Of a stretch of DNA of 64,000 nucleotides, positions 27,352 to 63,204 are shown piece by piece (the first letter of the stretch is position 1; each line of letters begins with the position of its first letter). This stretch comes from Squalus acanthias. Taxonomy: Eukaryota. The translations under genes were made by a program, and so were the position numbers. The notes under the pieces were generated by a model. It did not search any database and had not been told where the DNA came from. It saw only the letters and a program-made list of their open reading frames with translations. The stretch covers positions 156,116,001 to 156,180,000 of the forward strand of contig CM059429.1 of the NCBI GenBank assembly GCA_030390025.1, given 5' to 3'.

Positions 27352-27535
27352 TTTCACAAATTCCTTGAATTCTGGAACCTCATCTGTCTTTTGCTGGATA
27401 AGTGCAGCTCCGTTTAGCTGACAGCTGCAGAATCGGATGTATGGCTGCATGTGAGGCAGTTGTGCTGTTAATATGTCACCAATCATTTTCACTGGCATCC
27501 TCTCCCCTGACATCTTCTTCCTTACTCGCAGTGCC
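27352..27535 (-). CDS. ITSN1: ITSN1-L exon, DH domain
   Basis: [22 protein letters not shown]...PEFKEFVK; 184 nt. Confidence 0.96.
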
Positions 27536-28465
27536 CTACAGTGAGGCAAAAACAGATGCACATTAGAATAGATGACAAGTATGCAGACAAATGCAACATA
27601 TTCAGCATTGCATTAGGGTTTATTTAAAAAAACAAAAAAAAATGTATTTTAACTGTATTTGTGTTTTCTAGATAAAGCACTGTACTGACAGTAAGAATCA
27701 ATTTGTATCATTATCAATGCTTGTGTAAATACCGTGGGTATTTGTTGATATCAATCAATGTTTAGAAAACTTAGTGATCACTGTGCCTGCTTATCCTGAC
27801 TCCACATTAACATCAATGAACTTTATATCCAGGTTTCCAATTTCAAAGTCCAACAATCTGAATTAAATCCCAATGTTAAGAAACTTGTGTAAAGTAATTC
27901 TTGGCGTTCATTCTAAATGCAACCCAGATGTCAAATGCACTGCTGGAAGTATTTGCCGTTGGTTATATACCGGACAATAGATAGGTTCTGGTGTGTTACA
28001 ATCAGGTGAAGGGTTCAGGTGAAACTGCTTGAGCACGTCCATGTTACCTAAACCTGAAGATGTGCTACTCCTTTTAAATGCACTCCAGTCTGTGTTATTC
28101 CAATTGTAGAACTGTTTGTAGGAGGCCTATGTCAGCCAGCAGCAGCTGGCAAGCTCCCATGATAGAATTGCGTGATTTGAACTGAAATGCTAATTGTACT
28201 ATGTGATTTGAGCTGCTCTGACACCAGATTGTATTTAATTGCACATTACAGGGAAATAAAATGGCCCGTGTGTATTATATGAAGAGAGAGCAAATGCCCT
28301 GTCCGATATTATTTTATCCCACAAGGGAGTTATACTACAAGCAAAATAAAAATCTGAACAAATAGCTCAAAATGTAGAACTTCCACTTCGCAACAAAAAA
28401 CCTGTTTCCTGTTGCAAAGATTGGCTTTCAATCTATTACCCAGATTTACTCCAGTGTCACTCCAT

Positions 28466-49939: not shown

Positions 49940-50807
49940 CTGTATTAAAGGCACAGTTTTTAAATGATCACAAGAAGTGGCTGATTAAATACACAGGACC
50001 TCCAAACTATTAGTAGAAGCATTTATTAATTTTACTCCACTAGCAAAGATGACAGCAAAACTCACAATAATGAAGTGAGACATACCAGTTTACTTCATAA
50101 GTGGAATAAAACGGTTAGGAAATACTACGTTGTCCACTTTATCTCAAAATATTTAATATGAATTCAGATTGCACATTTTTCTATTGGATTCTGACTATTG
50201 ATGGCTGAGGTAATGATGCTTATTCAAATGAGTGTATGTGAGATAACATGAATGAGAACCAAAAAAATAAACAGTTCCCACTTGTATTACAATTGCCTAG
50301 AATATATTCCAAGGTAGCAAGGCAGGAAAGTTCAAATGTTATCAAAGCCCTGACATGTGAGCTCTTTGAAATATAGTCCAGGAAGTCAATTCTTTCTAAT
50401 ATGAAACTTGGGTGGAGAGTAAAATTCCTCCAGTCAACAATCCAGTTTTGTACTCATGTTAAAATTAAACAAAAGGAATTTAATCCCTTTAGTGATTTAA
50501 CATTTTCGGTTACCAAAAAGTCTTCAGGCATGGAAAATAGGTTCCTGTGTGGACACCATGTGATTTGATGAGCAATGATATTGCACCACGTGATTTAACA
50601 AGTAGGAACATCAGGATTTATTTAACTGAATGGTACAAGAGAATATAATAGTTGCACTACAAATTTTTGTCAGTTTATCCAGAACAAAGAAATACTAAAA
50701 CTTTGAGAACACTGCAATGAATACGGGGAGGTTTTTTTTTGGGGTGGTGGGAGAAACTGGGGAGAGAAGGGAAGGGAATGGAAGAGAAGACAGCATAGAT
50801 AATTCAC

Positions 50808-50974
50808 CTCAGAGTCCTTCGGTCTGACATAGTTGGATGGAAAGACGCCCACTTTTTCTCCGACAACACCTGTCCACCAATCGCCATCTTTCTTCGTCAC
50901 AAGAATCACATCTCCTTGCTGGTAAGTTAAATCTCCTGGTTCATTACTTTCATACGTGTACATGGCAACAAATT
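50808..50974 (-). CDS. ITSN1: ITSN1 exon, SH3C domain
   Basis: [21 protein letters not shown]...WWTG...[12 protein letters not shown]; tttacag acceptor, gtgaat donor; 167 nt. Confidence 0.96.
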
Positions 50975-55040: not shown

Positions 55041-55070
55041 CTTCTCCACCAGAAGCAGCAAAGAGCATCT
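55041..55070 (-). CDS. ITSN1: Candidate 30-nt microexon (EMLFAASGGE)
   Basis: ttccttgcccttcag acceptor and AAG|gtaact donor; phase 1-1, no stop. No transcript evidence. Confidence 0.5.
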
Positions 55071-57894
55071 CTGAAGGGCAAGGAACCCTCAAGTTGGAAT
55101 CTGAATGAATGAGGACCATTATGGTTTGATCATATTAAAAGGACATACATAAAATATATTATGCAAAACAGTTTTCCTACATTTATATTGCTATCAACAG
55201 AGATGAGCTATATCTATATCTTCTAAACGAAATGCTTGTTTCCTGCCATAAACTAGTCAGCACTTGAGGTTTTGCTTTCCTTTAAGTGCTGAATGGATAT
55301 GCTATTCTACAGATCAAGTGCTCAACTGCACTATCCTTTCGTTTGGAAGTGGGGGGGGAAATGGCGGAGGGGTAAAAAAAAAAAGAAATCTCATTTCATA
55401 AAAACACATGGCAACGTCTTCCAGAATAACTCAGTGGCTTTACAACTCAGCAGCTGAGACATGTGGACCAACAAAGTACCAGGTTCAATCCCTGGTCTGG
55501 GGCATGCACTACAACTGGCTTCAGCACTGCCAGTTTAGGAAATAGAAAATCAGTCAGAGATCATGTTTCTGATCACTATCCAGCAACCCCACCTGTGTGA
55601 ACATCAGGTACAGGATCAGCTTGGCGACGATGCCCTCTGTGGTCCAATAGCTTGCCAACTCTCACCGCCAAGGCTCATAATCAATTATGGCTGCTTGATA
55701 GGAAAGCAATTCTGGTGGAGGTGTACCCCAGCAAGGAGACAACATCTTCAGGAAAGGAGGGGAGAAACTTGGCAAATAAAAAAAACAAATTGCACAAAAC
55801 AAAAATTGGCGACAGAAATGTGAAAGACACAAATCGTTAGTTTGAGTACAAAGAAAATTGTCAATGCTGGAAATACCAGACCCTGAAGGTTCATGCACAA
55901 AACATTAACTTGTAGGGCTAGCTATGCATTTCCAGCAATTTCTGTTTTTATTGCCAATGTAAATCAGTTGAAAGGATCAGGATAAAATTGAGACTAAAAC
56001 TTCAATTGATCAGATTTCAGTTAGTGCTTACAGTGATACTAAAATCAAAAGCTGCCCAATTCCAGTCTCTCTTCATAAACTATTTCTTTACTGACTTCCA
56101 CAGAACCATTTAATTTAAATATACAAGAAGTTAGAATTCTATATATGAAAATAAAAAGAAGAAAGTTTCAAAACACTCATCATCAGGACATCCTTTGAAA
56201 AAGATTAAGATTGAGTATTATTTTTCTGTAATTTTTATTTTTAAAACAGTGAGCACTGGGAGACTAAATGGTACTGTGGGTGATCACATGCTCCATTCAC
56301 CTCTTGGACAACAATTCCACTCCTGCCCAGACTGGATGGAAAAACCTCCTCTCTGATTGGGTGCTGGATTTAGGGGCCCAACATGGTGACTTTGGGCACT
56401 TCTGAGCAAGTGCGGTCCACAGCATAGTTTTTCAAATTAACAATTGCATGTAAGAAAGGCCACAGGATAGCTGGTGTGTAATGAGGGGAAATTTTCCTTA
56501 CTGGAGGAAATGGGGAGGGAGATAAAGAATAGGGTAGCCTGACTAGTAAAGCAGTGGGATGGTCCATTGGCAAGTTGCTGGTCTGATGGATGGAAAGTGA
56601 TTATGCTCAAGAGTTTCCAATCCATGCTATTGAGAAATCCACACAGGTGAAGTTTCTGTTTGTGAGATGTGGAGAATACACACTCTCCCTTTGCTGGTAA
56701 GCTGCTGGTTTAAAAAAAATTCTCGGGATGTGAGCGTTGCTGGCAAGGTCGGCATTTATTGCTCATTCCCAATAACTTAGTGGCTTGCTAGGTCACATCA
56801 GAGGTAAAGAGTGAACTACATTGGTGCAGTCACATATGGGCCAGATTTGGTAAAGACAATGTCCTTCAGGGAAGGAAACCTAACGAATGAGTTGTTTTTA
56901 CGACAACTGACTGCTTCATGATCACTTTTACTGATAGCAGCTTTTCATTTCAGATTTTTTAAAAAATTAATTCAAAGTCTCAAATTGCCATGGTGGGAAT
57001 GGAAGTTCAGTTGTCTGATTAGTCCAGCCTCTGGATTACTAGTCCAGGAATGTAACCACCATATTACTGTAACCCGGTTAATGTGTATTTTGCCATGAGC
57101 AATGGGCTATCTGCTGGAGGTTCTGGAGCCTCAGCTCTTGCCAACCTGTGCCTAAGCATCCTGGACTAGTTACGCAGGGTGTGTCCCTTCAGGGAGAGAG
57201 CACGCACTCCATATCTTACGAAACAGAAACTGAGAGAGTGTTTCTCAGTAGCTTGGTTTGGAGACTGTTAAGTGTCAGATGCTTTGATAACCCCACCCCT
57301 GGATCGAATAATCTGCCAACGCTCGTTTTCTAGGTTTACAGAGAACCATAGACAAGGTACCAGAAAGCTACTGGTGTTCATGGAACCACAGTCCAGCAAG
57401 AGCCATTGGTTCAGGAATTTTTTTTTTAAAAACACAGATCAGAGAACTGGACGGAAGACTGAAACAGATAGATGATTCATCATCAACTGTCTGTTATTTT
57501 AGCTCCCTCACACCAATGGATTAAATACACACCAAACTGTACTCATTGTTTCAAGAAATATTTACCAATCGAATACAACATAAGGATGCCAAGCTCAACA
57601 AAACAGTCATAGATGAATTTAAGTGGAGTCCTGATGAGGAGATTCCCTCCATAACCAAAAATTAATGTCCTATAACTTGCCACATTTCTAGTATTCTATT
57701 TACATTTAAAATATACAAAAAAGTTATAATCCATTTATTTTAAAAGGCATTCAGTACACTTCCTCATCCATGCAAAGCAACACTATCAATAATGCTTCTG
57801 AATTCAGAACATTTTTATCAGAAAATAAAGATTCAAAGTGGGCTACAAAAGCATGACTGGTTCATTAGAAGCGTCAGTGAGATAGTTACTGTAC

Positions 57895-57948
57895 CTTTCC
57901 TTGGGAGAGAGGGAGGTCGAGGCGGAGGAGCCTCCTCCCTGCACAGTT
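57895..57948 (-). CDS. ITSN1: Candidate 54-nt alternative cassette exon (ELCREEAPPPRPPSLPRK)
   Basis: Long pyrimidine tract ttcttttctttgttttctgatgtctgctgtag and AAG|gtacag donor; phase 1-1, no stop, GC-rich patch in an AT-rich intron. No transcript evidence. Confidence 0.55.
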
Positions 57949-59109
57949 CTACAGCAGACATCAGAAAACAAAGAAAAGAACAGTACAGCATGATAAAGTA
58001 AAGTGACAACAAGAGTCAAAGTGATGCACAGAAATGAGCAAAAATAGCAATGACAATGTAGCGACAGCAATACAATGTTATAGCTAACAATACAAAAAAC
58101 ACAAGAGCAACAATGCAGTAACCTGATTGGAAACAAATCAAAGTACACTCTATATCTTGTGGTTTGATACATGGGACAGTTGCATAATACTCCAGGCCAC
58201 GAATTTACAGTGACCAAGTCAAATTCCATTTTAATTACATGGGATTGCACAATGTAATTTTTAAACCAGTTTTGAGATCACATTTGATAATTCTGCTATT
58301 TACAATTTGGGCCACTGGTTTTTAAGTCAAACTAATTTTACATTCCATCGAATTCCAGAATTTGGAGAACCACACTTCATTCATTTATCTTGAAAGTTGT
58401 AAATCAACAACCTTTAATAGAGTACCTTGAATGATAATTTTTGAAATAATTTTGGACTATGAGTTCCGACGACAGAAAATGCATTGTGTTATCACATGCA
58501 CCTTGGTATACAATGAGCTGGCTGGCACAAATCTCAATTTATAAAATCATAACGCATATATCATTTTTTTTTGAGCAGCCAGGTGTTCCAACACCCATCA
58601 TGTTTAAGAGTGTGCAATCCGAGTGACTGAGAAATCCACACAGGTGGAGTTTGTTTGCCCAATGTGGAGTGCACACTCTTCTCTGATGCAGAACACCCCA
58701 CTTACCCAGAAAGCATAGGCACAGGTTGGCAAGAGCCAAGGTCAATTGACCCTCAAGGGCATGTGTACTTCTGGAGCTTTACCACCCCAGAGTTGCACAG
58801 CTTTTCATGCCAAATCACGACCAAGTTTCCTGTTACTTTTCCAGCCAGGATCACCGCTTGGATAGGTTTATTTACAGCCAAGCAGGAAAGAGTTGAATTG
58901 CCCAATGACAAGTCTACACTTCAGGGACTATTAATGAACCAGGCTGGCTGGTCAATTATCAACAATGCCCTGAAATACTGTTCACCTCTCTGACACTGTG
59001 CAGTGCAGGGGGGATGGGGGGAAATCAGAGCAGTGACAGAGTGGAGCATGGGGGGAATGTCCCGTAGACCGTATTTAAAAACAGCACTGGAGAATCGGAG
59101 TGGCAACCT

Positions 59110-60835: not shown

Positions 60836-60921
60836 CATCTCCCTGTGATGCAGTCACCTTCGATGGTGGGGTGGTCATTCGCTTCAAGCTGGGTGGGCTT
60901 TCGGAAGAAGTGGAATCCACA
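60836..60921 (-). CDS. ITSN1: ITSN1 exon, SH3B-SH3C linker (VDSTSSESPPSLKRMTTPPSKVTASQGD)
   Basis: ccctgaag acceptor and G|gtaagt donor; 86 nt, phase 2 to 1; resembles mammalian MDSGSSESPASLKRVASP. Confidence 0.88.
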
Positions 60922-63204
60922 CTTCAGGGAGGACAAAAACTTGGGTTATACGGTTTGTTTTTAGTGTTCTGAAGCTGCAATGCCCTGAAATTACTATATA
61001 ATTTATTTAAAATTCACAATTTTCAATGTAAAACAAACTTTTTTTTTTAAACTGTGTTTAATCACCGATAATCAAGTAATTCAGCTTTTGGTTTACAATT
61101 TAAGGGACAGAGAGTCGAGTGGAGGTGACTAGGAGTATAAGCCCACTTTTGCTCTTATGACCAGTGAAACAAAATATCCAGTTGATAATTGATGCCTTCT
61201 AAAATTTTAACGTTGTAGTTAAAAGCACTAGCTCATTAAGAAAGCCTCAAAATGGTTGCTTTGATTTAAAATCTTCAAAACCATCGAGAATATCTGTATA
61301 ATTTTTTTAATTTATTTTTTTATTAGATATACCCTTTTTCAAAGATACTCTTCTCCTACATGGCCTCTCCAACTTGTGTTTTGCTCCTTCTCATTTAGAT
61401 GTCTGCACCACATACTGATCTTGTTAACAAGGAGGTGGGCAATCTGCTCCCAAGCCCCAGCTATCAAAACCATGTGGAGTCCTGAGGTCTCCCATCCCTG
61501 CAGAGAAGTGGCAAACCTTCATTCAGCACCTGTTCTTGACCAGGATCAGTTGGTTGCTGTTTGCAGAGATCACAGGCACAAACTCACATCCTACCAGTCC
61601 ATGGCAACAGACACCCGAGGTTTCACAACAAATTAGAGTTTATAATGTACAATTTGTTCTGTGCAGTTTTGAAATGAGTCATCTCTTATCCATGTATCCA
61701 ATATATTATTGAACTTGCAGTCTCGATCAAAAGCTGCACTTTCTGCCAGGACAGACATGAATCCCAAATTATGCCAAATCTTTTCCTCGTGTTCTTTTGA
61801 ATAGCTTGCCTTTAAATAAACAATCCAGTTACGAACACAACTGGACGCGAACTGCAAAATAACTTGCCTGAAAACAAAGTGTTTTTAGAATTTGAAAAGC
61901 CTTGAACTTTGATATTTACTTTCAATAGTGTCGTGTGTACTGTGCCAACTACATTAATTTGCTCTTTTCACAGAAATCCAGGCAGTACATTTTCTTTGGA
62001 AAGTCTGGCCTTTTGGCTGCAACAGTGTGGGGCAGTTTGTTTATAAACAAGCCCACATTCTGGAGACTGTACAATCCTAGCAGTATTTTCTCTCCAAGCT
62101 CTGCCCATGCAATCAAACCCAGTTATAATTTGAAAGAGGGCTTTAAAGTATTTTTTTTTTTTAAAAGAAAATGTTAATAAGTACCCATGCCTACTCAAAT
62201 GCTGAATTCCCTGACCAAGTGACACAAGTAAAAATCTTAAACTCACATGCTGTGTTTCTCTCGTACACAGCATACAATTCCATGTTCAAAAGTCTGGGGG
62301 AAGTCAAATAGGGTTTCTCACTCGGAATAATAATTGCTTAAATAAAATTGCAACTGGTCTACAATGAACGTCGGTTTTTCTGTAATATACCACTGAATTT
62401 GCACCCAGAGAGCTGTATTTCAGTTCCATAGGTTCCAGTAGCCGTTCAATGCCTCACCCAAGTGGCTACTCTTCTTGTGAGCCTAGATAGGCGCGTGTTA
62501 GCAGGTTAGCTAACAAAAGCAAAGCACAATGAACGAGGAAAGACCTTCTGGTCCACCAAGCCCACATCTTTCACAGACTCTGTACAACTATCATCCTTGA
62601 CTTCACCCCATTGAATTGATCTTCTGACAAGTTTTGCACAAATGCACCCAAATATCCATCCCTTAATATTTTTGCTTCAACAGACCATCTCTTCCTTGAA
62701 ATGTCAATACTGTCCTCCCTGTAATGGGAGGTGTGCGAGATTGTCTTGGTGGGACTGTACTTTGCCTAAATCCATAAATTACTATTGTGCAAAACAGCAC
62801 ATTTATTTTGCTTAAAATTCAGCTGATCATAGCTTAACTGATGGATTTTTTGAATGTTTATTTCCTTACATCGGTCACTTGGCTTGACATTAGAAAATGT
62901 TATATTACTTGTACTTTCCAAGCCATTTACAACTGCTGTGAACAGGGGAGCCTGATCAGAACCCGAGGCAAACTGCTGCTCAATGCCCACAGACACAGCT
63001 TTTTCCACTGATCACCCCCTCTGCTGCCTACTGCCTAGCCAGATGTGAGACAAATAACACAAACTTAAAACTACTTTTTTTTTAAACAAAGTCTCAGACT
63101 TGGAACTTCAGATGTCTTCTGCAAATCCAAGTAATTTTTATCTACTAGGCAGCCTGCATCCACCAATTCATTAACCCGCTCAAAGAATTCAGACAAATTA
63201 GTGA

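Follow-up and report, generated by a model that had tools for sequence, protein, structure and literature searches.

A cassette exon of cartilaginous-fish ITSN1 encodes a candidate ligand for the Crk/CrkL N-terminal SH3 domain

Introduction

The window analysed here is a 64,000-nucleotide stretch of the Squalus acanthias genome (genome size 3.7 Gb). On its minus strand lies the 3' portion of ITSN1, the gene of intersectin-1, which is a hub of endocytosis and a Cdc42 exchange factor with an array of five SH3 domains. The initial annotation proposed that a small exon of this gene is a cassette that adds a proline-rich, SH3-ligand-like peptide directly N-terminal of SH3C. The locus therefore raises three questions: whether ITSN1 transcripts both include and skip the exon, which lineages carry it, and which SH3 domain, if any, its peptide would bind. 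Splice events described for ITSN1 include microexon 20 in SH3A, skipping of SH3C by exons 25-26, truncation at exon 6, and exon 35 (PMC3645719). The cassette resembles these events in that in-frame alternative splicing retunes the SH3 array.

Results

Gene context and exon structure

The exons from EH2 to C2 were placed over the window plus the 60 kb next to it by tblastn, with the catshark long isoform as query (Table 1). Intersectin-1 records of sharks and rays match the SH3C exon at 96-100% identity. The candidate is bounded as AG|54 nt|GT, and the symmetric phase-1 exon described from the letters alone is correct. The donor of the upstream linker exon at 60836 is taken from spliced joints, and its 5' end is placed from a loose end at 60923 together with an AG. 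The Squalus gene also has the neuronal microexon of 15 nt that encodes VKGEW in SH3A, 13,603-13,617 bases past the window end (77603-77617 in extended coordinates, minus strand; L003).

Table 1. Features of the ITSN1 SH3B-SH3C linker region, in window coordinates
Feature	Position	Strand	Description
Cassette exon	57895..57948	-	54 nt, phase 1-1, AG...GT, stop-free; reads (E)LCREEAPPPRPPSLPRK; SH3B-SH3C linker
Codons of PPSLPRK (PPxLPxK motif; predicted Crk/CrkL N-SH3-type ligand)	57896..57916	-	
AG-exclusion zone	57951..58083	-	133 nt, U/UG/YGCY-rich; upstream of cassette acceptor
UGCAUG, RBFOX-type hexamer	57769..57774	-	121 nt downstream of cassette donor
60-nt exon	55041..55100	-	phase 1-1, (D)SNLRVPCPSEMLFAASGGE; joint 55041>50974
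Upstream linker exon	60836..60921	-	(...SPPSLKRMTTPPSKVTASQGD); common to bony vertebrates; tblastn support
SH3C exon of ITSN1	50807..50974	-	translation

Splicing of the cassette exon

Spliced contigs come from eight runs of two studies (P1, runs X1-X4; P2, runs X5-X8). They are presumed to be RNA and are unlabelled for tissue; their joints remove GT..AG introns (all CT..AC). Because the contigs carry no tissue label and rare forms are dropped, they indicate the presence of a form and not its level.

The 54-nt exon is a genuine, frame-preserving cassette exon that is spliced in and out. The inclusion joints 60836>57948 and 57895>55100 are present in six of the eight runs (X2, X3, X5-X8), and the skip joint 60836>55100 is present in three (X1, X3, X4). 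Both forms occur in a single run, X3. In study P2, all four runs contain both inclusion joints, and no skip joint is listed among them. A single contig in X7 spans 60836>50974 with 114 letters between, which equals the sum of the 54-nt and 60-nt exons. The short side of the inclusion joints is 54 letters long at both joints in X2, X5, X6 and X8 and only 28-29 letters long at one or both in X3 and X7; for the skip joint it is 60 letters in X1 and X4 and 29 in X3. Inclusion looks like the common state.

The upstream junction predicted in the initial annotation is thus the one in use. Its two predicted downstream junctions, 57895>55070 and 57895>50974, occur in none of the eight runs and are replaced by 57895>55100. 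The acceptor in use is 55100; an acceptor at 55070 and a direct joint to 50974 were both rejected. A strict splice-score scan of the intron detects neither the 54-nt nor the 60-nt exon. Its sole output, a candidate exon at 59111-58986, has no supporting joint and was also rejected.

Phylogenetic distribution

The peptide is found in ITSN1 of 18 cartilaginous-fish species, including sharks, rays and skates, and a chimaera. There are 54 chondrichthyan ITSN1 records, three of them without a readable linker, and the cassette is present in 44 of the remaining 51. The seven records that lack it comprise five that skip the cassette alone (from Mobula birostris, Hypanus, Stegostoma, Heterodontus and Callorhinchus) and two chimaera models without both extra linker exons. 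The exon is already contained in RefSeq and UniProt automated models of many species.

Among the matches listed, neither the cassette nor the 60-nt exon occurs in any of 239 non-chondrichthyan ITSN1 records (240, one unreadable), which cover sturgeon, gar, bowfin, bichirs, teleosts, coelacanth, amphibians and amniotes. The record sets are the best 120 of 631 and the best 120 of 1676 matches, and the latter search favours insert-free linkers. The isoform lists of gar (9), bichirs (13), Xenopus (12, one unreadable) and coelacanth (8) are all without the cassette. Gar, coelacanth and amphibians had been named as taxa in which to look for the peptide, and it was not found in their protein records. 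The statement that the peptide is foreign to the canonical mammalian linker holds, as mammalian ITSN1 linkers do not contain the exon. The peptide is also absent from one hagfish and one amphioxus record; the searches brought up no record from lamprey or lungfish. A search with the peptide region returns eight matches among 23 candidates, all of them chondrichthyan ITSN1. Within the Squalus genome the exon gives a single match only, which is weak evidence against a repeat origin. By inspection, Squalus ITSN2 has no counterpart of the cassette and apparently a single linker exon of phase 2-1.

As seen in protein records, this distribution is most simply explained by a gain in the chondrichthyan stem; alternatively, the exon may have been lost in bony vertebrates.

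Further proline-containing stretches occur in intersectin linkers. In the chimaera Callorhinchus milii (P0176), the upstream linker exon ends with an extra polyproline segment, KPILPPPPPQP, which the elasmobranchs do not have. Hagfish ITSN1 (P0264, approximately residues 993-1004) contains a different stretch, VPSRPAPAPP, directly before SH3C. The intersectin of the acorn worm Glandiceps talaboti (P0275/P0414) contains PTLPRK at residue 986 of P0275, in the SH3B-SH3C linker about 10 residues before SH3C. This is one of 81 linkers examined, against approximately 0.1 expected at the background rate, and reflects convergence or chance.

A second linker exon in cartilaginous fishes

The 60-nt exon is present in 49 of 51 chondrichthyan records and, among the matches listed, in none of the 239 others. 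It is included in 8/8 runs, where it is joined to the SH3C exon. Thirteen of its 20 positions are invariant, including LRVP and a cysteine. We take the LRVP to resemble the calcineurin docking motif LxVP. Homology to the ITSN2 linker (SEMLFAAS against EPIYAS) was rejected; the phases differ, and ITSN2 shows one linker exon of phase 2-1.

Conservation of the peptide motif

Across the 18 species, with one record each, the core of the cassette peptide is P-R-P-P-[S/F]-L-P-[R/K]-K. PPxLPxK is present in all 18; the P, P, L, P and K are invariant, and variation is confined to the two x positions (S/F and R/K). PxLPxK and the loose class II pattern PxxPx+ each score 18 of 18. Strict PxxPxR and class I motifs each score 0 of 18. 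The only PxLPxK among 263 ITSN1 records compared is that of the cassette. Against the chimaera, residues 10-18 are identical at 9/9 positions and residues 1-9 at 3/9 (Fisher p=0.009, with the split picked post hoc).

The two ways of describing the motif differ in what they tell. In 200,000 shuffles of the 18-mer, PxxPx[RK] appears in 29%, PxLPxK in 1.1% and PPxLPxK in 0.29%. The class II-like PxxPx(K/R) end pointed out in the initial annotation is therefore real, being present in 18/18 species, but uninformative, since 29% of shuffles of such a proline-rich 18-mer give one.

Several features limit what conservation can say. Nine of the 18 cassette positions are invariant among species that are related and not independent, and ITSN1 is slow-evolving in cartilaginous fishes. 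The 60-nt exon is equally or more conserved (13/20 vs 9/18) without any tested motif, so conservation alone is no proof of function. The invariant lysine is encoded by letters that also belong to the splice donor (AAAG|GT), and a splicing constraint may account for some of its constancy. C3, E6, P10 and R11 are invariant as well, although the Crk consensus does not include them, so a second site may overlap the first.

Predicted SH3 partners

The reported consensus of the Crk/CrkL N-terminal SH3 domain is PxLPxK, with the lysine held by D147, E149 and D150 (PMC8705818; consensus also in PMC10279719); PMC2689226 states it more broadly as PxxPx(K/R). The cassette peptide matches PxLPxK in 18/18 species. 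It shares this core with the Crk/CrkL ligands C3G/RAPGEF1, PEAK1-3, Abl and DOCK1. For example, the skate core PPSLPKK differs at one x position from PPPLPKK of PEAK3, for which a KD of 1.7 uM is reported (PMC10279719). The Squalus genome encodes both Crk (L017, DEED) and CrkL (L019, DVED) with the D-x-E-D pocket intact. By hand alignment, none of the five ITSN1 SH3 RT loops contains all three pocket acids: SH3A, SH3C and SH3E have two of the three, SH3D has one and SH3B has none.

On these sequence comparisons, we favour the reading that the alternatively spliced exon, here in cartilaginous fishes only, inserts a PPxLPxK peptide that binds the N-terminal SH3 domain of Crk/CrkL, with a probability of roughly 0.55. 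A predicted Crk-type ligand of this kind agrees with the earlier suggestion that other SH3 proteins dock on the peptide. Lysine is also read by other SH3 domains, which weakens a specific assignment to Crk; the exceptions named in PMC10453029 are Crk-1 (first SH3), cortactin and TSPOAP1-2. The lysine of the core is followed by D-S-N, with an acidic residue next, while C3G and the PEAK ligands carry further basic residues, so the affinity for Crk may be lower.

The Squalus Crk (L017 1116-2141, minus strand) and CrkL (L019 838-1950, plus strand) sequences each run from SH2 through N-SH3 within one uninterrupted GC-rich reading frame. Crk is located on a small contig beside a long tandem repeat.

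The other suggestion of the initial annotation was that the peptide serves as an intramolecular ligand of the five-SH3 array. It would then fold back on SH3A, SH3C or SH3E and compete with dynamin, SOS and synaptojanin. Because the PxxPx+ ligand, conserved in all 18 species, is tethered approximately 20 residues N-terminal of SH3C, even weak binding could be enough in cis. Three of the domains, SH3A, SH3C and SH3E, are reported as class II binders (10.1101/631440) and keep two of the three pocket acids, and isoform-specific binding of an SH3 domain in cis is reported for BIN1 (PMC6246682). The same three domains are reported to prefer PxxPxR (10.1101/631440, citing Teyra 2017), however, and the position is lysine, in a PxLPxK frame, in 18/18 species, which makes autoinhibition less likely. 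SH3B, SH3C and SH3D are reported not to bind any of the proline-rich peptides assayed in PMC10814857; for SH3C the reports disagree, as RhoU is pulled down in 10.1101/631440. Inclusion is seemingly the common state, and bony-vertebrate ITSN1 functions without the exon. We regard autoinhibition as distinctly unlikely.

The consensus of CIN85 is PxxxPR and that of endophilin is PxRPP. PxxxPR is present in the cassette peptide of 16/18 species and PxRPP in 17/18, and the invariant P10-R11 suits a second, overlapping motif. An external adaptor other than Crk (CIN85/CD2AP, endophilin or cortactin), or a composite site, could account for these matches, and ITSN1 is already reported in complexes with CIN85 and endophilin (PMC10453029, PMC12457278, PMC3645719). 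Two skates have lysine for the arginine of PxxxPR and the chimaera breaks PxRPP, whereas PxLPxK is intact in 18/18. The mammalian endophilin-ITSN1 contact, as described in PMC10453029, is an SH3-SH3 contact with SH3B that involves no proline motif. Docking of another adaptor is unlikely.

The match to Crk would be incidental if the exon mainly alters linker length or stiffness, or provides a phosphorylation site of the 14-3-3 type. RxxSxP is present in 10/18 species, the chimaera and batoids among them, and Crk and 14-3-3 sites are reported to lie next to one another in PEAK proteins (PMC10279719). The neighbouring lineage-specific 60-nt exon is as conserved as the cassette without a tested motif. 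Against this, all eight galeomorph sharks with the exon have phenylalanine at the serine position, and conservation is uneven, being focused on the motif positions (9/9 vs 3/9 against the chimaera). A spacer or phosphorylation role is an outside chance.

Tissue distribution of inclusion

Whether inclusion is neuronal is a question separate from the choice of ligand. In the initial annotation the exon was called tissue-specific, which in combination with the RBFOX hexamer reads as neural. The VKGEW microexon (microexon 20, SH3A) is described as neuron-specific and the short ITSN1 form as mainly non-neuronal (PMC3645719). A neuron-specific exon of the RBFOX/SRRM4 type, like microexon 20, would be consistent with the UGCAUG downstream of the cassette and with UGC near its acceptor. 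It would also be consistent with the isoform records, most of which are automated gene models: all seven VKGEW records include the cassette, and none of the five skip records contains VKGEW.

The inclusion records point the other way. VKGEW is missing from 37 of 44. The skate cluster holds ten full-length, run-derived assemblies; all of them include the cassette and terminate as the short form, and nine of the ten are without VKGEW. The cassette is therefore not neuron-restricted, and inclusion is not limited to neuronal transcripts on this indirect evidence. The hexamer is near chance level. A neural, RBFOX-driven exon is accordingly highly improbable, and such a neural reading is not borne out. 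The pattern fits default inclusion with skipping in some non-neural tissue.

Splice sites and regulatory sequence

Both splice sites were scored with a simple, uncalibrated matrix. It gives 1.1 bits for the donor AAG|GTACAG, the third lowest among 19 approximately mapped exons, and a middling 3.5 bits for the acceptor. Good splice sites, as first claimed, overstates them.

The U/UGC-rich upstream intron is confirmed. The 200 nt upstream of the exon are 50.5% U and contain 29 UG and 8 UGC; the share of minus-strand 200-nt windows that reach these values is 0.16%, 0.16% and 3.1%, respectively. The last 200 nt before the acceptor also contain 7 YGCY. The 133-nt AG-free stretch is the longest of 4147 AG-to-AG gaps on the minus strand of the window, and branch-like YTNAY candidate sites occur at -87, -68, -51, -46 and -13. 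At this length it belongs to the class of large AG-exclusion zones (at least 100 nt; Gooding et al., PMC1431707), and exons with such zones are reported to be cassette exons more frequently (PMC1431707). The zone is likely regulatory, or marks a candidate distant branch point.

The UGCAUG noted about 120 nt downstream is where it was placed (57774-57769), but its significance for RBFOX is doubtful. Eight copies occur in the 9.9-kb span 60835-50975, and per 64 kb there are 23 copies on the minus strand and 28 on the plus strand, so the sense strand is not enriched and one copy within 200 nt has a chance of approximately 7%.

Elsewhere in the window, the acceptor at 27535 of a DH-domain exon on the minus strand also has a long AG-free zone, of 115 nt (27536-27650). 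This exon is possibly a further regulated one.

Discussion

If the peptide docks Crk/CrkL, its core would adopt the form of a class II polyproline ligand, with the terminal lysine in the three-acid pocket of Crk. The Crk SH2 domain would then tether ITSN1 to tyrosine-phosphorylated receptors or adhesion scaffolds, and the tethered ITSN1 would bring along the endocytic partners of its SH3 domains and, when the long form is made, also its Cdc42 GEF. Skipping would remove the Crk link in some tissues. The weak donor, together with factors that bind the long U/UG-rich, AG-free zone, would likely promote skipping.

A broader reading, to which we give slightly less than even odds, is that a splice switch retained by cartilaginous fishes couples ITSN1 directly to Crk/CrkL. 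This would be a route from Crk to Cdc42 and endocytosis that bony-vertebrate ITSN1 lacks, with ITSN2 reaching Crk by phosphotyrosine and SH2. Retention of such a switch would span over 400 million years. Among the entries listed in searches of mainly the open literature (20 of 822 in one case), no paper deals with the exon or with an SH3 link between ITSN1 and Crk. The Crk review PMC2689226 does not contain the word 'intersectin' and the ITSN review PMC3645719 does not contain the word 'Crk'.

The predicted site has both similarities to and differences from known systems. Several Crk/CrkL N-SH3 ligands are GEFs, as is ITSN1-L. Unlike those ligands, the cassette site is predicted, is present in a single copy and has no trailing basic residues, and the protein whose alternative exon encodes it is both a scaffold of endocytosis and a Cdc42 GEF. 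The known ITSN1 splice events alter or delete SH3 domains, whereas the cassette adds a ligand motif, was found in cartilaginous fishes only and is not neuron-restricted. In BIN1 isoform 1, the CLAP-SH3 closure (PMC6246682) likewise involves an isoform-specific segment of an endocytic adaptor and a potential SH3 ligand. The BIN1 ligand binds its own SH3 domain, whereas the cassette motif suits Crk better than the SH3 domains of ITSN1 itself.

If Crk/CrkL docking is correct, the cassette would be a clean example of how a single small exon can rewire an interaction network. A short motif that is lineage-restricted, anciently conserved and switchable would tie a core scaffold of endocytosis, which also acts as an exchange factor for Cdc42, to tyrosine-kinase adaptors. 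The surprise is limited, as motif-bearing alternative exons are well known, the exon is already in automated models, and it was found in cartilaginous fishes only.

In that case, comparison with ITSN2 would suggest that each of the two intersectin paralogues came to Crk in its own way, one with an SH3 ligand and the other with phosphotyrosine. The Crk SH2 domain is reported to bind human ITSN2, and not ITSN1-S, after EGF (PMC3723668), which would fit such a division between the paralogues. The interdomain phosphotyrosine sites of ITSN2 (PMC3723668) are likewise linear motifs outside folded domains that join an intersectin to tyrosine-kinase adaptors. They differ in that ITSN2 uses phosphotyrosine and SH2, on an apparently single phase 2-1 linker exon, while ITSN1 would use proline and SH3 on a phase 1-1 cassette. 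In Squalus, the ITSN2 linker exon (L013 4480-4543, minus strand; G000 C9) lies in the same SH3B-SH3C linker and contains a tyrosine site, EPIYASVNK. This tyrosine presumably corresponds to human ITSN2 Y968.
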